Sequence record: MK327936.1
Direction: 5' to 3' (one strand)
Origin: Escherichia phage vB_EcoM_G2540
DNA: 64,000 nucleotides
Shown here: piece by piece, positions 1 through 35,512 of the stretch
How the letters are laid out: every line of letters starts with the position of its first letter
How positions within the stretch are numbered: the stretch's first letter is position 1
Notes under the pieces: generated by a model
Told to the model about the DNA's origin: nothing
Databases searched by the model: none
Seen by the model: only the letters and a program-made list of their open reading frames with translations
Program-made: the position numbers and the translations under genes

Positions 1-2178
1 TTAGGCCGCAAGGGCCTTCATAGTTTTAGCGATTTGGGAAACTTCATCATCACTTAAAGAGTTGCGATAACCGATGAAGTCGGAAACAATACGGAATTTC
101 TTGGTAAACTCAGCAACCATTTTATCACTGTTTTTTGAAGCATTATTTGATAATATATCAAAAAGATTAGTTACTGTCCAGATGTCATGACCGATGGTAT
201 CTTTTCCACCATTAAAATATACGCCGCGCAATGAACTAACTATATTAGCGAGTCGTGTATATTCTTCAGAAACTTCATCTGTACTGAAGTACTTCATCAT
301 AAAATCTAGTTCAGGATACTTGATAATTTTATCAATATATCGTTGAGCTGAACTTGAATAACCTACATACTTATCATAATCTACATCATCAAAAGCATCT
401 ACATATAAATCACGCAAAGCTTCAAAAATACATTGGCACTGACCGAGTTCTTTTACCTTTTTCTGCAAAAGCGGACGAATAACATAAAACTCATTAATGC
501 CAATAAGATTAGCCATACGAATCAAAATATTCATAGATGGATGACAAAGAGATGTAGTACCATCCATAGAGAAAATATCAGAACGATGCATATACGCTAC
601 ATACCCAGTAATTTCATCTGCTTCTGATGTGAGCGTAAATAATTCCTCTTTTTCCCAGCGCCCGTCTTTAATTTCAAACTTAAATGCTGTAGCAGCTTTA
701 GGACGAGGAGCTTTACTTTTAACTACCTTTGGAATATAGCTTTTAACTAAAGCTTCAATTTCTGACAAATAATGAATGTTAACTTCATCACTTTCAAACA
801 TCGCCATAATATCAGGAAGCAAATCAATCTGCGATTCTACTTCTGGATTAATAAACAGAAGGCGTTCGTTGTGATGAATATTCAAAGTGTTATTAAATTC
901 ACTATCATCTAACGCATGTGCTAATCCACGGACAATATTAACACGATTTTTAATATTATCAATAACGATATTAATTTTTGTTGCATTAATACCAAACAGA
1001 CGATAACTTGATGCAACGGCTGAAGTTTCATGACTTTGCTTAATGCGCTTCAGTCGAGGGTCAAGATTTACTTCATACACAACTCCTGCATTGCATAACT
1101 TACTGTCAGGTTCAAACATGCTCTGCATCTTTTTATATGACAGATTTTTAGTCGTAAATTTGACTGAATTACTAATCATATAATCTCGAGCAGAATACCC
1201 CATCTTCATCAATTCACGATATGTATGACGGGGAGATGTGGATTCTTTAAATCGTTTTACATCTTCATTAAATGCTTTCTCACTGAGTTCTTTAACTCGT
1301 TCAATAATATTTTTACGAGTACGATCATCCAGTGAAAGAGCCTCGCGAGATGGAGCAATATCAAGTGAACCCATTGGAAACTTAATGTAATTCACTTCAT
1401 TGCGAATGCTTAGCCAGTTACGGTCTCTAATAACACCATCGATAGGATAAACAATACCGCCATAGATAGCATATAATCCACCACGATCAGGCCAGTATCT
1501 TTCTGGATTTACACCGTAATAGTCATTAAAATCCGGAAAATAATCAATTTCGCGGTCAAGACCATTAATGATAGCCAAATCTTTGAATGGTCGCATGATA
1601 TAAGAAACTTCATAAGCAAAGTTTCTAAAGTCTTTTTCTTCAACTGGAACTACGATTTCAATACCAGTTTTATCATCTGGACCCATTTCTTTTACGAATG
1701 TAGGTTTAATCTGTGGACCATCACCATCCATGTAAGCTACATAACCACGAATTTCACCTTTATGATACGAAGTAATACTAAATGTATCAGTATAACTAAA
1801 CGGAGATTTAGAACCTAAACCAAACCCGCCAATAAAGTCATTAGATTCAGCCTTAGATGAACTGAAGTATGAATTATATAACCCAGGAGAATTATCATCA
1901 CCCTGAATATCAAAATCACTCATACCCGGACCAAAATCTCGACAAACAAATCGCGGATCTAATCGTCCTGGAACTTGTATGATAAATTTTTCAGGATTTC
2001 CATTAAGTGCATGGGCATCAATCATATTAGTAATTAATTCACGGACTACTGCACGAATCTTGTTTGTATACAAATCAGATGACAGAATTTTAAATACTTT
2101 AGGAGATGCTGTGATGCTAAATGCTTTTGATTTAGAACCATTGCCAAGAATTGTTTCTTTTTCAGTGGTGATAATCAT
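1..2178 (-). CDS. rIIA: rIIA protein, 725 aa
   Basis: 725-aa ORF ending at window position 1; length and N-terminus ([14 protein letters not shown]...) match recalled T4 rIIA. Confidence 0.85.
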
Positions 2179-2188
2179 AATTTCCTCA

Positions 2189-2392
2189 TTAATTCATATT
2201 ACGCTTAATAACTTCAGCAACTTCTAGTAATTCATCTTTAGTTGCAGTGTCGGATTGAATTTTATCTCTAATATCTTTAAAGCGGTTTTTAAATTCTTCG
2301 GCTTCTCCCATATCGAAAAAGCGTTGAATGATTCTATATTCTCGATGAACTGCTTTATCAAAAAGTTCTAAATTTACTTTATATGATTTCAT
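2189..2392 (-). CDS. small conserved protein downstream of rIIA (rIIA.1 position)
   Basis: 67-aa ORF in the rIIA.1 position by synteny. Confidence 0.55.
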
Positions 2393-2417
2393 TTCAATAT
2401 CCTCATTTGCCCAATTA

Positions 2418-2447
2418 ATTATACCACATCCTTGTGGTAAAGTAAAC
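2418..2447 (-). promoter_or_regulatory. T4-type early promoter
   Basis: minus-strand -35 GTTTAC (plus gtaaac 2442-2447), 18-bp spacer, -10 TATAAT (plus attata 2418-2423) preceded by GTGG; upstream of rIIA.1/rIIA. Confidence 0.6.
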
Positions 2448-4267
2448 TACTGGCTCATCCATTCTTTACGAAGGTCAGCATTATCTCCCATGAGCATTTC
2501 AAAAAGCTCTTTCCAGTTCTCAGGAAGTTTAACAACATCATATACTGGATTTTGAATCATCTCACGATATTCAGATTTTTCCAAAGAGCCAAGTCCTTTA
2601 ATATAACGGATGCTATGTTTAGGTAGAGCATCTTTAGCACTCTCATATTCAGCGACTGTATAAAACCATTCTTGTTTTTTACCAATCTGTGCGATGATTA
2701 CAGGAGTTTTGACAAAGCGAATTCGTCCTTGCTCAAACAGTTCTGGCCAATTACTAAAAAATCCAAGCAGAGAAGGATAAATGCTTCCTAGACCATCATG
2801 GTCAGCATCAGTCATAATAGCAATATTATGATAATTCAAGTTTTCAGCTTTTTCACCGAGAACTAATCCAGTGATTGCGCAAATATCAAACAGTTCTTTG
2901 TTTTTAAGCATGTCAGCATATGACATACCCCAACTGTTGAGAACTTTACCACGTAATGGATAACCACCGTGAAGTTCTTTATCACGAACATCAATAAGAT
3001 ATCCGATAGCCGAATCACCCTCAGTCAAGAAAAGAGTAGTATCAGCATCTTTACCACAAAGATTCGCTTTAATATGTTTATGAACCTTAGCTTTAGAAGC
3101 CTTTTTAGCTGCTTTAGTTTCTGCTGCTTTTTCTGCCGCTAATTTACGAGCCAAAGCAGCTTCAATAATCGGCATTAGAATTGCTTCATTATTTAGAATA
3201 GCACGTGAAATCTTTTTAGCATCAAGTTGAATATGACTACGGATTTCACCAAATGGAGAAGTCAAACGCTCTTTAGTTTGAGAATCAAATCGCATGTTTT
3301 TCATATCACGGACAAACATAACGATAGTCAAACATTCTTTAACGCGTGCTTTAGTCACATCAATTTTGAACTTACGTTTGATTTGTGGAATAAGGTCTTC
3401 ACAAATATCATCCATAACACAGTCAATGTGATGGCCACCATTCTTAGTGTGAATGTTATTCACATAAGTTAATTGACGAAAACCATCCGGTGAACGACCA
3501 ACCGCAATAGAGCAATTTTCTTGTTCTTGAACGATAGCATGCTCATCATATTGGCGTGCATATTTCTTAAAATTGCCCTGAACCTTTTTACCATTAAAGG
3601 TAAATTGAATATCAGGATAAACTACTGCAAGTGTCTGGAGACGATCTAGTGTAATGTCAAGATAAACTTGGGACAGCTCATTAGTTTCAAATGACATAAA
3701 ATCAGGAATGAAAGTAACGCGAGTTCCTTTCCATTTTCCTGGAATAGTTTCCCATGATTTATTTTCCATGCCATTTGAACAACGAACTACAATATTATTT
3801 TGACCATCACCAGTTTCACCGACAAACATCACAGAAAAAATGTTTGTCAAACTAGAACCAACACCATTCATACCACCGGTGACGCGTTCTTTATCATCAC
3901 CGAAGTTACCACCTGCTTTTGGAATAGTCCAGGCAGCAACAGGACCAGGAATTTCTTCACCAGTAGGTGTTTTGACCATCGCTTGTGGAATACCGCGACC
4001 GTTATCTTCAACTGTTACTTGATTGTTTTTAATAGTAATATTAATTTTATTTGCGAATTTAAACTTAGTACGAATACCTTCATCTACTGAGTTATCGATA
4101 ATTTCATCAATAAGCTTAACAAGACCAGGTACATACTGAACACTTTCCCATTTACCAAACAGAAAGCGCTCATGCATTTCATTAGCAGAAGAGCCAATAT
4201 ACATGCCGCTACGCTTTTTGATATGTTCAATATCGCTCAGAATTTTAATTTCATTCTTAATCATCAC
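2447..4267 (-). CDS. 39: DNA topoisomerase II large subunit (GyrB-like ATPase), unsplit 606-aa form
   Basis: N-terminus MMIKNEIKILSDIEHIKKRSGMYIGS..., GHKL ATPase motifs (EDNGRGIP); single ORF covers what T4 splits into genes 39 and 60. Confidence 0.85.
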   Translation of the reverse strand: MMIKNEIKILSDIEHIKKRSGMYIGSSANEMHERFLFGKWESVQYVPGLVKLIDEIIDNSVDEGIRTKFKFANKINITIKNNQVTVEDNGRGIPQAMVKTPTGEEIPGPVAAWTIPKAGGNFGDDKERVTGGMNGVGSSLTNIFSVMFVGETGDGQNNIVVRCSNGMENKSWETIPGKWKGTRVTFIPDFMSFETNELSQVYLDITLDRLQTLAVVYPDIQFTFNGKKVQGNFKKYARQYDEHAIVQEQENCSIAVGRSPDGFRQLTYVNNIHTKNGGHHIDCVMDDICEDLIPQIKRKFKIDVTKARVKECLTIVMFVRDMKNMRFDSQTKERLTSPFGEIRSHIQLDAKKISRAILNNEAILMPIIEAALARKLAAEKAAETKAAKKASKAKVHKHIKANLCGKDADTTLFLTEGDSAIGYLIDVRDKELHGGYPLRGKVLNSWGMSYADMLKNKELFDICAITGLVLGEKAENLNYHNIAIMTDADHDGLGSIYPSLLGFFSNWPELFEQGRIRFVKTPVIIAQIGKKQEWFYTVAEYESAKDALPKHSIRYIKGLGSLEKSEYREMIQNPVYDVVKLPENWKELFEMLMGDNADLRKEWMSQ

Positions 4268-4316
4268 TTATCCTCGTTTGGTTTCGGGAATATTATACTC
4301 CGGTAATCATAAAGCT

Positions 4317-4334
4317 AAAGGCCCGAAGGCCTTT
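4317..4334 (-). terminator. intrinsic terminator hairpin
   Basis: aaaggcc-cgaa-ggccttt stem-loop (UUCG tetraloop on the transcript) immediately 3' of the 4334..4603 ORF. Confidence 0.5.
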
Positions 4335-4603
4335 TATTTAAAACGAATAGTCGAATCCTTGAAGAATAGTCCAGAACATACTGTTCCTTCTACTTTCTGC
4401 CCAGTAGGTCCAATAGCACGAAATCCAGTATGCTGGAAATCATTTTCAGAGCAACCGAACCAATTATATCCAGTGATTTCAATATTAGTAAAACCACTTG
4501 AAGACAAAACTTTGGTTGCATTATCAGCATCAGTACATCCTATTAAAGACACTGCTAATACTAATGCTGCGATAGAACGATTAATATATTTCATAATTTT
4601 CAC
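4334..4603 (-). CDS. putative lipoprotein, 89 aa
   Basis: signal peptide with lipobox-like LIGC motif (MKIMKYINRSIAALVLAVSLIGC). Confidence 0.5.
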   Translation of the reverse strand: MKIMKYINRSIAALVLAVSLIGCTDADNATKVLSSSGFTNIEITGYNWFGCSENDFQHTGFRAIGPTGQKVEGTVCSGLFFKDSTIRFK

Positions 4604-4971
4604 TTAAATTTAATGGCTTGAAGAAGACTAATAATTCTCAAGCGACTTCCTTCATCTTTAACTGTAAAAGAAAGAGGGTCACCAGATTTCATAGTGATAG
4701 TGCATTCAAAAGCAAAACCTTCGGGAACTTCTTCGAAGAAGTCAAATTCTTCATCATAAATTAGAACATTACTCTGAAAACTGTGAAGAATTTTTCCGTC
4801 ATTTCCAGATGCTGTACTAATCATTGTAACATTATTACCTTTCATATCTTCAACGATAAATTCGCTTGTAGATATTACAGCATTAATAGAACCATTCCTA
4901 TAAATAGCAGAAAATAGATATTTCTTTTCTTCACCTTCGCGAATGCGATATTTCTTACCGATTTTAAACAT
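4600..4971 (-). CDS. hypothetical protein, 123 aa
   Basis: ORF tightly packed with neighbours (start overlaps stop of upstream ORF). Confidence 0.45.
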   Translation of the reverse strand: MFKIGKKYRIREGEEKKYLFSAIYRNGSINAVISTSEFIVEDMKGNNVTMISTASGNDGKILHSFQSNVLIYDEEFDFFEEVPEGFAFECTITMKSGDPLSFTVKDEGSRLRIISLLQAIKFK

Positions 4972-31730: not shown

Positions 31731-32417
31731 TTAAAAATCGTGGGTAGAATCAGCTTCAAGAGCTACCACATAATTCGCGTGTTCACCTTCAAATTTAGCA
31801 GCACCTTGTTTACCTTTTGCCCAGAGCAGAAGTTTATAATTTCCTGGTTGCATTTTCATATTTGCCATATTGATAATGAAATTAAATGTGTTTTCACCAT
31901 CATAATCACCAAGAGTCAAAGAATATTTAACACGAGTCAAAGCAGAATCTTCTACTTTATTAAAACCGTTAATTACGATTTTACCTTCTTTTACTGTGAT
32001 AGCAATTGTATCAATCTGCAGACCGCGAGATACACGCAACAGCTGTTGAAGGTCTTCAGCTTTAATTTCGGTAACAACAGATGCTACCGGGAATGGAATT
32101 GGTTTATTAGGAGCAACTACTGTACTCGGATCGGCTGCTGGCCAAAAAATTGTTGAACGGGCATCAGCAATTTTAATATTTCCATCTTCTGACTGGGAAA
32201 TTTCTGCATCATCATTAACTAGAGACAGAATACCGAGAAAACCGTTCAAATCGTAAATTGCTACATCAAAATCAATAGTGTCAGAAATATTTGCTTCCGC
32301 GTAAGTTGTACCATTAACTGCGCGAGTCATAATAAATTGACCGGATTTAAGCATAATACCAGAGTTAATAGTAGCGAAATTTTTGAGCAGAGCAGTAGTA
32401 TCTTTAGACAGTTTCAT
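31731..32417 (-). CDS. 45: sliding clamp gp45, 228 aa
   Basis: 228 aa as in T4; synteny 45-44-62. Confidence 0.85.
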   Translation of the reverse strand: MKLSKDTTALLKNFATINSGIMLKSGQFIMTRAVNGTTYAEANISDTIDFDVAIYDLNGFLGILSLVNDDAEISQSEDGNIKIADARSTIFWPAADPSTVVAPNKPIPFPVASVVTEIKAEDLQQLLRVSRGLQIDTIAITVKEGKIVINGFNKVEDSALTRVKYSLTLGDYDGENTFNFIINMANMKMQPGNYKLLLWAKGKQGAAKFEGEHANYVVALEADSTHDF

Positions 32418-32440
32418 GTAATTTCCTTCAATTCAAATGA

Positions 32441-32473
32441 GATTTAATTTTATAACTAATTTAATAAAGCAAT
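32441..32473 (-). promoter_or_regulatory. candidate MotA-dependent middle promoter for gene 45
   Basis: MotA-box-like TTGCTTTAT (plus aaagcaa 32466-32472) ~50 bp upstream of gene 45 with an A/T-rich -10. Confidence 0.35.
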
Positions 32474-32862
32474 TAACGATTAAAATCAGCCGCAATTGTT
32501 TCCGCAACAATTTGAGCAGCAACAATTAGACGTTCATCTGCATTACCGCAATAATCATCTTCAAGACGTTCACCACATGAAGTCATAATAAATTTAGCAC
32601 CGGCGTTTAGGGATTCTGTAGTATGTTTGCGCATTAGTTCAATCCATTTATTACTTACTTCACGATCGATAGCTTCATAATACGCATGACGAGCAGGTGC
32701 AGATTTAATTTTGTTCTGAATAACTTCCATTGCGTTATCAGAAAGAGACAAAACCCATGCTCGACGAATTTTATTTTGGTTTTGTGGATTTGATTCAGAA
32801 CGCACGTGTTTTGGCTGAATATCTTTTACATCAACAGTATAATTCACAGTAATTTTAGTCAT
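32473..32862 (-). CDS. rpbA: RNA polymerase-binding protein RpbA, 129 aa
   Basis: 129 aa as in T4; synteny upstream of gene 45. Confidence 0.7.
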
Positions 32863-32871
32863 AATACACCT

Positions 32872-33063
32872 TTAGTCATAATAATCAGTAACAGTCCAAG
32901 CTTCATTTCTATTGGACATTATTTTTGTATATTCTGCTTTAAATGCATTCCTAAGCATAGATTCAGTAACTATATGCTCTTCATTAGAAAAATTATTTCT
33001 CAGAATATATCGTTTTATTTCAGGAATAGTTAATAGATGCTGTCCGGTTGAATATTCTGCCAC
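32872..33063 (-). CDS. small conserved protein (45.2 position), 63 aa
   Basis: size and position. Confidence 0.5.
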   Translation of the reverse strand: MAEYSTGQHLLTIPEIKRYILRNNFSNEEHIVTESMLRNAFKAEYTKIMSNRNEAWTVTDYYD

Positions 33064-33073
33064 AGTTCCTCCG

Positions 33074-33081
33074 TATAAATA
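33074..33081 (+). promoter_or_regulatory. late promoter TATAAATA on the plus strand
   Basis: exact TATAAATA at 33074-33081, 34 bp upstream of the HNH ORF start, followed by an AAAGGA Shine-Dalgarno. Confidence 0.55.
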
Positions 33082-33114
33082 TGTTTATCACTCGCTGTAT
33101 CAAAAGGATATGTT

Positions 33115-33831
33115 ATGAATTATAAACTAATTTATGAAAAGTTAATCTCTAATGCTAAATCTCGAAAACTTGATTGTTATACTGAATCTCATCACATTAT
33201 ACCACGCTGTTTAAATGGCAGCGATGATGCTTCAAACTTAGTAGATTTAACACCAGAAGAGCACTATGTAGCTCATCAACTTTTAGTAAAAATTTATCCT
33301 TCTGAACCAAAATTAGTCTATGCTGCTAACATGATGACAGTTTCTACGAAATACGCTAAACGCAACAATAAAACTTTCGGTTGGATTCGTCGTAAACTCT
33401 GGGAAATAGAAAAGAATAAAGAATTCTCCCAGGAGACACGAAAGAAAATGTCTGATGCAGTAGCTAATAAAGCAAGACTAACTTGTCCTCATTGCGGTAA
33501 GTCTGGATTAAGCGGGAATATGAATCGTTGGCATTTTGATAACTGCCCAAATCACCCTAATCCTAAAGTTAGACCACCAATGTCTAAAGAACACAGAAAT
33601 AATATCTCAAACGGGCTTAAAGCAATCGTTCTTGAAGAAACATCCTGCGAATTCTGCGGAATGATAGGCAAGAAATGCGTTATCGCAGCGCATAGAAATT
33701 TCTGCAAGAAAAATCCAAATGGACGCAAGAAAACTGAAAAGACTGGTACTTGCGTCCATTGTGGTAAAGTTACCACTTTCGGAAATTTATCAAGATGGCA
33801 TAATGATAACTGTAAATATAAACTTAGCTAA
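33115..33831 (+). mobile_element. free-standing HNH homing endonuclease, 238 aa, with three C-terminal zinc-ribbon repeats
   Basis: HNH motif ESHHIIPRCLNGSDDASNLVDLTPEEHYVAHQ; three Cys-rich repeats (CPHCGK...RWHFDNC, CEFCG...AAHRNFC, CVHCGK...RWHNDNC); opposite strand to neighbours. Confidence 0.8.
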
Positions 33832-35512
33832 TCTTAGCTAAACTAAATCTACCAACTTTTTCCATCTGAATATGCTGACCATATTCTTGTGGGTCATGGT
33901 CTTTATGTGAAATTATGAAGAAGTTGGTATCCTTCAAACCATCTAAAATTTTAGCTACATTTTTAATACCTTCAGCATCAAATGCACCGTCATACACTTC
34001 ATCAAGAAATAAACAACTTATTTTAACACCTGAAACTTTTTCAGCAATATCACGCCAAGTAAATAAAAGAGCAATATCAATTCGTGCTTTTTCACCTTGA
34101 CTGAATGAAGCATAACTAAAATCTTCACGACCACGGGATTTAATTGTCTCATTAAATTCTTCATCTAATGTAAACACATAATCCGCTTCCATTATTTTAA
34201 GATAATGGTTAATCTGCTTATTAAATAATGGAATGTACTTTTTAATAATAGCACCTTTAATACCAGAATCTTTGAGCATATCAGTCAAAATTCCTCGGTG
34301 GTATTTTTCCATTACTAAATTAGTTTTTGTCTTAACAATTTTATCAAGTTCTTCTTGAAGCAGTGCTATTTCATCAGCATGGTCAATAAACTCAGAAGAT
34401 GCTTTTTCTATAGCCGCTTTAACTTTTTTAGCTTTATCTACCGTCGTGATTAGAGATTGCTTTTTATTGCGAATATCATTTGCCAGCGACTGCTGGGTTT
34501 TAATATTATCTCGGTATTCATCAACAAGAACTTTTAAATTATCACGATGTGTTGAAAGCTGTTCAAACGAATGCGTGCATTCAGAAACTTTATCTTTAAT
34601 TTTAGAAACAACTTTATCACCGGAACTTAATTGTGACAAACAGGTTGGACATAATCCACCTTCGTGATACATATTAATGACTTTATTATATGAGTCAATT
34701 TTTGATTTAATTAAAACTGCTTCTTGACCGATTTTATTAAATGCATCAGTCGGGTCTTCATCCAAAACAATATTAACTAATCTTTCATTAGCTTCTTCTA
34801 TTTCCGATTTTAGCGTTCTAGCTTCTTTTGCCAAATCATCGTACATATTTTGCAGACGAGTAAGGTTGTCACCCGTTAATTTTTTCTGGCGTTCAACGTT
34901 ATCATTATATATTTTAATTTGTTGGATAATACTATCTTTTTTAACATCAAGCACTTGGTTCTGCGAATTTAATTCACGTATTAGTGCTTTATTAAGCTTA
35001 TCCATTTCAGCTAATGTTCCTACCTCGAGCAGGTCTTCCACAAGCTTTCTTCGCGCAGGGGTCGACAAACCCATGAAAGGGGTATACCCTGCTGTACCAA
35101 GGACAACAATCTGCTTGAAACTGGCATATGACATTCCGATAAGCTGTTCAAATTCTGCTTGGAAATCTTTACTGCTGGCAGATTCATTAAGACGTGTACC
35201 GTTAACGGTGATTTCGAAAACGTTTGGTTTTTGTCCTCTTTTGATATAGTACTTTTTCTCATCATATTCCATCCACAGTTCAACTAAAAGTTCTTTCTTA
35301 TTTGTGCTGTTTATTAATTGACCTTTCTTTACATCACGGAATGGCTTGCCAAAAAGCCCAAATGTGATGGCTTCTAACATAGTAGACTTACCACCGCCAT
35401 TTCGTCCAGTAATAAGAGTTTTTTGAACCTTATCTAATTGAATGTCAATAGGATTTCCACCTACTGACATTATATTTTGATACCTAACTCGGTTTAGTTT
35501 AAAATTCTTCAC
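33824..35512 (-). CDS. 46: recombination nuclease subunit gp46 (Rad50/SbcC-like ATPase), 562 aa
   Basis: Walker A GRNGGGKST, long coiled-coil middle, signature/Walker B at C-terminus; T4 length ~560. Confidence 0.85.
   Translation of the reverse strand: MKNFKLNRVRYQNIMSVGGNPIDIQLDKVQKTLITGRNGGGKSTMLEAITFGLFGKPFRDVKKGQLINSTNKKELLVELWMEYDEKKYYIKRGQKPNVFEITVNGTRLNESASSKDFQAEFEQLIGMSYASFKQIVVLGTAGYTPFMGLSTPARRKLVEDLLEVGTLAEMDKLNKALIRELNSQNQVLDVKKDSIIQQIKIYNDNVERQKKLTGDNLTRLQNMYDDLAKEARTLKSEIEEANERLVNIVLDEDPTDAFNKIGQEAVLIKSKIDSYNKVINMYHEGGLCPTCLSQLSSGDKVVSKIKDKVSECTHSFEQLSTHRDNLKVLVDEYRDNIKTQQSLANDIRNKKQSLITTVDKAKKVKAAIEKASSEFIDHADEIALLQEELDKIVKTKTNLVMEKYHRGILTDMLKDSGIKGAIIKKYIPLFNKQINHYLKIMEADYVFTLDEEFNETIKSRGREDFSYASFSQGEKARIDIALLFTWRDIAEKVSGVKISCLFLDEVYDGAFDAEGIKNVAKILDGLKDTNFFIISHKDHDPQEYGQHIQMEKVGRFSLAKIS

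Follow-up and report, generated by a model that had tools for sequence, protein, structure and literature searches.

The DNA analysed here, a window of 64,000 nucleotides from Escherichia phage vB_EcoM_G2540 (sequence record MK327936.1), comes from a Tequatrovirus (T4-like phage) genome and harbours, between gene 45.2 and gene 46, a gene that most probably encodes a free-standing homing endonuclease of the T4 Mob class, organised as a self-contained cassette of late promoter, leader and open reading frame (ORF). We put the probability of this reading at roughly 0.7. Judged from sequence comparison, carriage of the cassette appears to show the usual marks of self-copying into related phages. 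All positions given below are those of the window.

The Probable Endonuclease Gene and Its Neighbours

The two flanking genes were recognised by 95.5–99.7% nucleotide identity to T4, and on the left side homology to T4 stops just past the ribosome-binding site of 45.2 (Table 1). Gene 46, the right neighbour, occupies positions 33824-35512 on the minus strand. A preliminary description of this DNA, made from the letters alone, had reported a plus-strand gene of 238 aa wedged between 45.2 and 46 and overlapping the gene 46 stop by 8 nt in convergent orientation, and the ORF coordinates agree on both counts. The endonuclease gene ends with its stop codon at 33829-33831, gene 46 with one read from the opposite strand of 33824-33826, and the palindrome TTAGCTAA recurs at 33834-33841. 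The same description had counted the gene as one of two on the plus strand. Among ORFs of at least 110 aa it is the sole plus-strand ORF that is not nested, that is, not inside a longer minus-strand ORF, and no second gene was found in this set. The plus-strand ORF at 4203-4607, considered as the second gene, is not a gene; it has no family match and lies opposite, and within the bounds of, a lipoprotein-like ORF on the minus strand. Downstream of the endonuclease ORF, a search for an intrinsic terminator on the plus strand found none.

Table 1: Features of the endonuclease locus, with positions in the 64,000-nucleotide window.
Feature	Position	Strand	Remarks
Gene 45.2, left flank of the insertion	32872..33063	-	99.7% identical to T4 up to 33057
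T4-type late promoter -10 element, putative	33074..33081	+	TATAAATA, exact match
Leader	33082..33114	+	conserved block GTTTATCAnTCGCTGTATCAAA; Shine-Dalgarno AAGGA (33104-33108)
Mob-class HNH homing endonuclease, coding sequence (probable)	33115..33831	+	238 aa, ATG start; = RB32ORF054w
HNH catalytic core, aa 22-54	33178..33276	+	HH...N...H..AH; YTESHHIIPRCLNGSDDASNLVDLTPEEHYVAH
Zinc finger 1 (predicted), aa 124-144	33484..33546	+	CPHCGKSGLSGNMNRWHFDNC; C-x2-C-x12-H-x3-C
Middle-promoter-like motif	33599..33627	-	GATTGCTTTA, 13 nt, TATTAT; antisense inside the endonuclease gene
Zinc finger 2 (predicted), divergent, aa 178-197	33646..33705	+	CEFCGMIGKKCVIAAHRNFC; C-x2-C-x11-H-x3-C
Zinc finger 3 (predicted), aa 213-233	33751..33813	+	CVHCGKVTTFGNLSRWHNDNC; C-x2-C-x12-H-x3-C
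Convergent overlap of endonuclease ORF and gene 46	33824..33831		8 nt, palindrome TTAGCTAA; contains the stop codon of both genes
Gene 46 3' end, endonuclease-linked allele	33824..34120	-	putative co-conversion tract and resistant target allele
Walker B codons of gp46	33989..34012	-	inner edge of the divergent tract; candidate target region

Family Membership and Known Relatives

The ORF matches PHROG 655 ("homing endonuclease") with an E value of 7.5e-69 and has more than 2300 homologues. A tblastn search of the protein against T4 yielded five places, the best of them at mobE with about 35% identity over the full length, and Foldseek comparison with viral models (BFVD) returned T4 MobB (P13329, E 1.6e-11, 32% identity) and MobC (P07074, E 3.7e-9) together with other Mob-like endonucleases. 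The Mob class has been described as combining an N-terminal HNH domain with a C-terminal zinc finger (PMC10448857, PMC2790892), and by this architecture and by the matches to MobB, MobC and MobE the protein belongs to the free-standing HNH endonucleases of this class. The gene is not new, having been annotated since 2006: the RB32ORF054w record of that year labels the same gene "similar to mobB", and it was tallied among the "mob-like HNH" genes (PMC2993671). No paper on this ORF or its orthologues was found in the literature.

T4 MobE shares with the present protein the N-terminal HNH domain, with an MNY..IY..L start and HHIIP..GG.D...N..L...EH..AH, and the terminal Cys2-His-Cys finger CPHCGK...RWH.D.C. 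It is likewise free-standing, patchy in occurrence and located beside a conserved essential gene, the adjoining sequence of which is polymorphic between carriers and non-carriers. The two differ in locus (nrdA/nrdB versus 45.2/46) and in expression, mobE having no promoter of its own and being co-transcribed with nrdA, whereas the gene described here lies on the opposite strand to its neighbours behind its own TATAAATA; in addition, MobE-type relatives have NUMOD3-type repeats where this protein has two extra fingers. MobE introduces a strand-specific nick into nrdB, mapped at nt 122-126 (Wilson & Edgell 2009, PMC2790892). MobB and MobC are the best named structural matches, and MobB likewise has its own upstream promoter (PMC2988022); these genes are inserted at different sites, alpha-gt/alpha-gt.2 and nrdG/nrdD, and the TM-scores of 0.4 indicate that the modules alone are shared and not their arrangement.

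Two further candidate identities were dismissed. An intron-encoded or intein origin does not apply to an ORF that lies between two intact genes, 45.2 and 46, and the neighbourhood is wrong for a terminase-associated HNH protein. I-TevIII of phage RB3, which has zinc fingers, and I-HmuI presumably resemble the enzyme in combining an HNH domain with an extended modular DNA-binding region; both are intron-encoded, whereas the present enzyme is free-standing. I-TevIII is described as producing a double-strand break via dimerisation (PMC1865063).

The HNH Domain

Residues 26-54 of the translation read HHIIPRCLNGSDDASNLVDLTPEEHYVAH. The Pfam HNH profile stays below its gathering threshold (E 0.007, 16.9 versus 21.4 bits), and a family profile aligns the core to the HNH domains of EcoKMcrA (E 5e-4) and Cas8-HNH (E 0.007). 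Residues H26, H27, N41, H50 and H54 are invariant among 80 homologues. An AF2 model of the protein, with a mean pLDDT of 93, places strands at residues 24-27 and 42-45 and a helix at 47-60 in this region. The HNH motif claimed in the preliminary description is thus upheld by the EcoKMcrA alignment and by the invariant residues, and by the motif test the protein can be assigned, as far as sequence goes, to the HNH (beta-beta-alpha-metal) nuclease superfamily.

Three Predicted Zinc Fingers

The C-terminal half had been described as three tandem zinc-ribbon repeats of the pattern CGK...RWH-x-DNC. Fingers 1 and 3 do fit this pattern, and they are 64% identical to each other over 22 aa (E 3e-10); finger 2 does not fit, BLASTP against finger 1 revealed no similarity, and it has no detectable likeness to either of the others. 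Neither are the modules tandem, because linkers of 33 aa (between fingers 1 and 2) and 15 aa (between 2 and 3) part them. The name zinc ribbon had to be given up as well. In a zinc ribbon, a three-stranded beta-sheet bears a pair of zinc knuckles, as a rule C-x2-C ... C-x2-C. The modules here have Cys2-His-Cys ligands spaced as in classical zinc fingers, the model shows every one of them as a beta-hairpin with a helix, and the match to the zinc-ribbon Pfam family Lar_restr_allev is far below threshold (15.9 versus 28.6 bits).

The strand-strand-helix order recurs in all three modules of the model at a pLDDT of 92–96, with beta-hairpin 121-132 and helix 133-143 in finger 1 and strands 175-186 and helix 187-199 in finger 2, and in each module a helix of 11–13 residues bears the His and the last Cys. 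Measured against C-x2-4-C-x12-H-x3-5-(H/C) spacing combined with a beta-beta-alpha fold, the three modules are predicted to be classical zinc fingers in the C2HC variant. The ligands of finger 3 (C213, C216, H229 and C233) are invariant among the 80 homologues and the module recurs at the C-terminus of T4 MobE (CPHCGKKVNKGNALRWHYDKC), which marks finger 3, on sequence comparison, as a hallmark of the Mob family. The ligands of finger 2 are kept in the orthologues. Finger 1 is present in close orthologues, NUMOD3 repeats standing in its place in more distant relatives, and many homologues of 35–45% identity carry PF07460 in place of fingers 1 and 2. In the present protein the NUMOD3 profile (PF07460) stays below threshold (E 0.13, 12.6 versus 20.4 bits) and covers residues 103-115 alone.

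The Cys/His modules are likely to form the DNA-recognition module. Zinc fingers are found in phage homing endonucleases (PMC2988022). No PDB structure was matched by Foldseek at E ≤ 0.001, and single-sequence and whole-chain searches of solved structures likewise returned nothing significant; no Mob protein was among the structures searched. The top PDB matches, non-significant at E 0.018–0.5, were the classical C2H2 arrays of CTCF, Tramtrack and ZFP568. These share with the endonuclease the C-x2-C-x12-H-x3-(C/H) spacing and the predicted beta-hairpin plus helix, but the phage fingers end in Cys, are separated by helical linkers of 15–33 aa instead of the short canonical linker, and have no sequence homology to these arrays.

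Expression Signals

The exact TATAAATA that had been noticed upstream of the gene is indeed present, 33 nt before the ATG. It occurs four times in 64 kb, compared to 11.4 occurrences expected from shuffles; the motif is depleted and the copy at 33074 is therefore not background. Its position relative to the ATG is kept in the cassettes of Tequatrovirus, Mosigvirus, Dhakavirus and Klebsiella phage Roth67, and the leader block GTTTATCAnTCGCTGTATCAAA is common to the four lineages despite proteins that are just 57–64% identical. These findings suggest that the gene has its own late promoter, and endonuclease-specific middle or late promoters are the rule in T4 (PMC2988022). Some T4 endonuclease genes are known to have a ribosome-binding site masked by an RNA hairpin; no significant hairpin of this kind was detected at the present gene (-7 kcal/mol, z -0.92). 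An operator in the manner of I-TevI, that is, a promoter or leader resembling the target, was sought by comparing this region with the gene 46 3' region of T4, T2 or Mosigvirus, and the best 20-mer matches were no better than those of shuffles.

On the opposite strand, the motif GATTGCTTTA with TATTAT at a distance of 13 nt resembles the middle-promoter consensus (PMC2988021). The interval from 45.2 to gene 46 has no other match of this kind on the minus strand. The motif is kept in four Tequatrovirus copies despite three synonymous changes in its spacer, and 1.9% of shuffles yield one like it. The T4 45.2/46 spacer, which the cassette replaces, has TGCTTTA, 11 nt, TATAAT. As a lead from the sequence, the antisense motif might possibly serve as a substitute for the displaced 45.2 promoter. 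In T4, promoters embedded in endonuclease genes favour retention of the gene (PMC2988022).

Distribution and Insertion Site

The gene is far from universal: of 599 Tequatrovirus records, 59 have it, roughly a tenth. Phages RB32 and RB51 are carriers. T4, T2, KIT03 and PYps10T have a 55-nt spacer at 45.2/46 and no endonuclease gene, and none of the 17 gene 46 loci retrieved from IMG/VR viral contigs carries it; these loci, five of them on T4- or T2-like contigs (L004-L008), were used as extra non-carrier references. Orthologues occupy the same slot in the same orientation in Mosigvirus 348Ecol098PP (57% amino-acid identity), in Dhakavirus MX01 (64%) and also Bp7, in Klebsiella phage Roth67 (64.5%, decayed and split into two ORFs) and in Pseudotevenvirus EC-F1 (44%), and non-carrier relatives exist in these groups (LF82-3, SF, JS98 and Roth66). 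Insertion was in every case at the stop codon of gene 46, with overlaps of 8, 4, 14 or 23 nt or a 5-nt gap. Comparison of the junction with ORF-less relatives, proposed in the preliminary description, showed that the 55-nt spacer of T4/T2, which holds a hairpin and promoter-like sequence, has been displaced wholly by the cassette and that the gene 46 flank has diverged. With the patchy presence and the same slot used across genera, this bears out the earlier view of a mobile insertion at the 45.2/46 junction; neither universal presence nor identical flanks were observed. The presence of the gene in about 10% of records and its occurrence at one locus in numerous named species and several genera call for mobility that is ongoing or recent. 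Between copies, dN/dS is 0.016–0.18 for the whole protein, which indicates purifying selection.

A Diverged Allele of the Gene 46 3' End

Gene 46 is Rad50-like, and its product gp46 is the ATPase subunit of a complex that processes DNA ends. In the tract at 33824-34120, identity to T4 and T2 falls to 53–93%, whereas the next approximately 1.3 kb are about 96–100% identical. Four genus-level pairs of carrier and non-carrier, including Mosigvirus, Dhakavirus and Klebsiella-phage pairs, show the same pattern: the last 180–210 nt of gene 46 are 47–87% identical and the remainder mostly about 93–100%. In control pairs, in which both members are non-carriers, the tract is 90–100% identical. The left flank is 98–99.7% identical up to the 45.2 start, so that the divergence is on the gene 46 side alone. 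A search of the phage collection with the carrier tract found 59 records at 95% or more, none at 90–95% and 507 at 80–90%; the carrier-type allele and the endonuclease gene are therefore equal in number, 59 and 59. By sequence, this pattern is that expected of a co-conversion footprint, in which the flank would have been inherited together with the endonuclease gene.

At the inner edge of the tract, the Walker B codons specify LFLDEVYD here versus LILDEVFD in T4, T2 and the non-carrier Mosigvirus genomes, and we infer that the target of the endonuclease lies in the gene 46 3' end, at or near these codons. No tract position cleanly parts all carriers from all non-carriers, and an attempt to pinpoint the target by positions invariant in non-carriers and changed in all carrier lineages revealed no such block. 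Variation at the Walker B codons extends to some lineages without the gene (L011-L013 and L017), and CLFLDEV occurs at the protein level in two non-carrier contigs (L012 and L013). The target region therefore stays a candidate. The tract boundary might be no more than the first long conserved stretch where recombination resolves. The T4-type and T2-type alleles, both from non-carriers, differ from each other in the tract, and the hot spot is therefore not due to this endonuclease alone.

Proposed Homing and Alternative Readings

Taken as a homing element, the cassette would act as follows. Late in infection, the TATAAATA promoter would give rise to a plus-strand RNA that runs antisense to the early genes around the cassette. 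The predicted product would consist of the N-terminal HNH domain, helical linkers and the three Cys2-His-Cys beta-beta-alpha fingers, the latter arranged along the DNA and presumably providing site specificity. During mixed infection the enzyme may, as its family suggests, nick or cut the genome of a relative that has no such gene, probably somewhere in the final 200 nt or so of gene 46, with the Walker B codons or their vicinity as the likely site. Repair by recombination, with the carrier genome as template, would introduce both the cassette and the neighbouring stretch of gene 46, and the carrier itself would be protected by the heavy divergence of its own stretch.

The same enzyme might instead have its target in the 45.2/46 spacer at the insertion point, with immunity arising from replacement of the site and the gene 46 tract being a passive donor flank. 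Such a target would agree with the loss of the entire spacer, hairpin and promoter-like sequence included, with the constant insertion at the gene 46 stop codon and with the lack of a single discriminating position in gene 46. It is nevertheless rather unlikely, since the spacer is not conserved among the host genera (those of T4/T2 and Mosigvirus are unrelated to each other, and JS98 has none because 46 and 45.2 overlap there), since the divergence is one-sided, 45.2 being nearly unchanged up to the junction, and since characterised free-standing endonucleases of T4, for example MobE, cut inside the neighbouring conserved gene (PMC2790892). We consider it quite improbable that the gene has ceased to home actively and is either a relic or kept for DNA binding, for regulation or for an antisense promoter serving 45.2/rpbA/45. 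The selection on the whole protein and the invariant catalytic HNH residues are unlike a relic, the constraint from an embedded promoter would extend over about 30 nt and not 238 codons, and the spread over species and genera at one locus needs mobility, even though many Mob genes of T4 are without demonstrated activity (Table 1 of PMC2988022), the Roth67 orthologue is already split, and a middle-promoter-like motif lies antisense in the ORF that displaced the original promoter, for which T4 provides a precedent of embedded promoters favouring endonuclease retention (PMC2988022).

A use of the nuclease mainly as a weapon in co-infection, which would disable recombination and repair in competitors by cutting their Rad50-like gene 46 and would have homing as a by-product, appears very improbable. 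The inferred target region does encode the Walker B motif of gp46, and PMC11620839 reports an intron-encoded endonuclease interfering with a co-infecting phage; however, nothing here tells a weapon apart from ordinary homing, gp46 is made early and would be in place before a nuclease expressed late could act, and repair by gene conversion gives back a working gene 46. Returning to the enzyme as a homing endonuclease aimed at gene 46, a more far-reaching version, which we regard as doubtful, sees in it a modular "zinc-finger nuclease", the relatives of which would swap fingers or NUMOD3 helices and thereby retarget the HNH head to new phage genes, the present lineage having specialised on the Walker B region of gene 46; in this version the cassette would be hard to lose because its antisense strand would hold the replacement middle promoter for 45.2/rpbA/45.

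Significance

The endonuclease is an ordinary Mob-class gene that behaves as its class predicts, and as a discovery it carries little weight. Its value is rather a practical one, as it represents a tractable Mob enzyme with carriers and non-carriers that are about 95–99.7% identical in the compared flanks, with a narrow candidate target interval of about 200 nt of gene 46 and with four independent genus-level replicates. The endonuclease would account, though not alone, for a local mosaic hot spot in the conserved recombination gene 46, and its predicted three-finger DNA-binding module could reveal how Mob enzymes read DNA.

Gene structure and protein product

The Tequatrovirus (T4-like) early region in the window comprises genes 44, 45, rpbA, 45.2, 46, 46.1, 46.2 and 47, all located on the minus strand. 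The plus-strand HNH gene that the preliminary description had placed between 45.2 and gene 46, overlapping the latter by 8 nt, was confirmed. It is the sole plus-strand ORF of at least 110 aa in the window that is not contained within a longer ORF of the minus strand. The palindrome TTAGCTAA forming the overlap provides a stop codon on both strands, so that the endonuclease and gp46 both end in Ser. A second copy of TTAGCTAA is located 2 nt beyond the first (33834-33841), and the base preceding the first copy is T in the window versus C in RB32 and two other copies.

Features of the endonuclease locus (window coordinates)
Feature	Position	Strand	Remarks
Gene 45.2	32872-33063	-	left neighbour of the endonuclease ORF
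Late promoter motif TATAAATA	33074-33081	+	exact match; 33 nt to ATG
Shine-Dalgarno AAGGA	33104-33108	+	ahead of the endonuclease ORF
Endonuclease ORF	33115-33831	+	ATG start, 238 aa; between 45.2 and gene 46
Convergent overlap TTAGCTAA	33824-33831		8 nt; contains the stop codons of the endonuclease ORF and gene 46
Gene 46	33824-35512	-	right neighbour of the endonuclease ORF
Walker B codons of gp46	33989-34012		coincide with the inner edge of the divergent tract

The protein matched PHROG 655 "homing endonuclease" (E 7.5e-69) and has more than 2300 homologues. Its HNH core (aa 22-54) is below the Pfam threshold alone; nevertheless, a profile of 80 family members aligned it with the HNH of EcoKMcrA (E 5e-4), Cas8-HNH, a group II intron maturase and IscB, and H26, H27, N41, H50 and H54 are invariant in these members, in keeping with the HNH motif noticed earlier. 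The AlphaFold2 model obtained with the family alignment (mean pLDDT 93) contains a nuclease domain and helical linkers as well as three beta-hairpin-plus-helix units (121-143, 175-199 and 210-232). Fingers 1 and 3 have predicted metal ligands in the pattern C-x2-C-x12-H-x3-C, and finger 2 has C-x2-C-x11-H-x3-C. This is classical zinc-finger spacing with Cys as last ligand, arguing against zinc ribbons. Sequence identity between fingers 1 and 3 is 64% (E 3e-10), whereas no sequence similarity of finger 2 to either was detected. Thus, of the proposed triple tandem zinc-ribbon repeat the three Cys/His modules remain, but as predicted zinc fingers, only two of which are sequence repeats, and these are not in tandem. 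The last finger is invariant across the family and likewise terminates T4 MobE, whereas relatives at 35-45% identity carry NUMOD3 repeats in place of fingers 1 and 2. Comparison with other copies yielded dN/dS values of 0.016-0.18, demonstrating purifying selection on the protein.

Distribution at a fixed locus

Megablast of 32400-34600 matched 599 phage records, 59 of which, including RB32, RB33 and RB51, contain the whole stretch at 98-99.6% identity; tblastn against the phage collection gave 59 records with the endonuclease at ≥95%. The gene is not new and had been annotated before: most records name it homing endonuclease, the RB32 counterpart is RB32ORF054w, and a 2010 review counted two "mob-like HNH" genes in RB32 (PMC2993671). 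A literature search found no paper characterising the ORF. In T4, T2, KIT03 and PYps10T, a 55-nt spacer takes the place of the 760-nt cassette of late promoter, leader and endonuclease ORF.

Orthologues in other genera occupy the same slot; there too, the gene lies between 45.2 and 46, is convergent with 46 and directly adjoins the 46 stop codon. They are present in Mosigvirus 348Ecol098PP (57% amino-acid identity), Dhakavirus MX01 (64%), also Bp7, Klebsiella phage Roth67 (64.5%, two ORFs) and Pseudotevenvirus EC-F1 (44%), and the gene is missing from the same-group relatives LF82-3, SF, JS98 and Roth66. The Roth67 orthologue is a decaying copy, as it is split into 1501-1770 and 1834-2235 of that locus (1501-2235 overall); the adjacent gp46 still has the CLFLDEVYDGAFDAEGIKNV segment of the window's allele. 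In the Bp7 locus, gene 46 (1664-3164) is annotated in two pieces, 1664-1846 and 1926-3164, with a gap of ~180 nt from the endonuclease ORF to the first piece, which could reflect a sequencing error or real damage beside the endonuclease gene. In JS98, a Dhakavirus without the gene, 46 and 45.2 have 4 nt in common (1485-1488 of its locus) and no spacer, so that the cassette of MX01 and Bp7 sits where both genes were once translationally coupled.

A diverged gene 46 allele beside the cassette

The left flank matches T4 at 99.7% identity as far as 33057, and homology stops just beyond the 45.2 ribosome-binding site; on the right, homology restarts at 33844. There, the 180-290 nt of gene 46 nearest the cassette show 53-93% identity to T4 and T2, followed by ~1.3 kb at about 96-100%. 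In four pairs of phages with and without the endonuclease gene, the divergent tract extends from the gene 46 stop to ~180-210 nt upstream (47-87% identity), beyond which identity jumps to mostly 93-100%; control pairs both lacking the gene show 90-100% in the same tract. At its inner edge, Walker B reads LFLDEVYD in the window versus LILDEVFD in T4, T2 and those Mosigvirus genomes that lack the gene. A 309-nt gene 46 segment searched against the whole phage collection was found at ≥95% in 59 records, at 90-95% in none and at 80-90% in 507. Judged by these equal totals of 59, the diverged allele and the endonuclease gene appear to travel together. With the patchy occurrence and the diverged flank, comparison with relatives lacking the ORF supports the proposed mobile insertion at the 45.2/46 junction. 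The T4-type and T2-type alleles, neither of which is accompanied by the endonuclease gene, also differ from each other in the tract, and no block invariant in all genomes without the gene and changed in all carriers was found there. Between T4 and T2, the equivalents of 33894-34020 differ by 20-40%, the rest of gene 46 being 96-100% identical.

Promoter and leader

T4 homing endonuclease genes normally have their own middle or late promoters (PMC2988022). The late motif TATAAATA occurs four times in 64 kb compared to 11.4 copies expected from shuffles; it is thus avoided in the region, making a correctly placed copy more credible as a signal. Four lineages with proteins just 57-64% identical have this motif and a leader block (GTTTATCAnTCGCTGTATCAAA followed by AGGA) in common in their cassettes, indicating that the promoter moves with the gene; in the EC-F1 cassette the version is diverged. 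A hairpin masking the ribosome-binding site was not supported, no plus-strand terminator was found downstream of the ORF, and the leader showed no similarity to the candidate gene 46 target.

The T4 46/45.2 spacer (1448-1502 of the T4 locus) contains a middle promoter matching the consensus of PMC2988021 (MotA box TGCTTTA, 11 nt, TATAAT), enclosed by the 9-bp inverted repeat AGAGATTAT/ATAATCTCT. Antisense inside the endonuclease ORF, GATTGCTTTA, 13 nt and TATTAT are found on the minus strand from 33627 down to 33599. This is the only comparable minus-strand motif upstream of 45.2 in the window, it persists in four Tequatrovirus copies even though the motif's spacer has synonymous changes, and such a motif arises in 1.9% of shuffles. 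As a lead, it may restore transcription of 45.2, rpbA and 45, which would fit the promoters for downstream neighbours reported in T4 endonuclease genes (PMC2988022).

Other ORFs in the window

The plus-strand ORF 4203-4607 had no PHROG or NCBIfam match. The opposite 89-aa ORF (4334-4603, minus strand), with a lipoprotein-like signal (…LVLAVSLIGC…), is more likely the gene. A single topoisomerase-like ORF of 606 aa (2447-4267, minus strand) shows, on visual inspection, motifs of the GHKL ATPase and Toprim types, which suggests one unsplit gene for the large subunit in vB_EcoM_G2540. In T4 this subunit is encoded by two genes, 39 and 60, on either side of mobA.

Proposed mode of spread

The endonuclease is an ordinary member of the known Mob class, and we consider it probable (roughly 0.7) that it is active or was so recently. 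MobE nicks nrdB in mobE-less genomes, and recombination then copies mobE with its flanks (PMC2790892). By analogy with the family, the protein here would be expressed late, its finger array would bind about 200 nt at the 3' end of gene 46 in genomes without the endonuclease gene, and the HNH domain would make a nick or break there; repair would be templated by the carrier genome, whose diverged gene 46 allele would confer self-immunity. That the gene is instead an inactive or repurposed relic is improbable in view of the dN/dS values and invariant catalytic residues. Even less credit is given to a weapon in co-infection; no evidence here separates it from ordinary homing.

Concerning the target, we give even odds to the 3'-terminal ~200 nt of gene 46. 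Homing with co-conversion between a putative cut site and the endonuclease gene would be expected to leave such a one-sided tract, as for MobE and nrdB (PMC2790892). A target in the spacer at the insertion point is unlikely, since divergence lies on one side only and host genera have unrelated spacers, or none in the case of JS98. At its 3' end, gene 46 forms a mosaic hot spot with three alleles, which past invasions and losses may have left behind.
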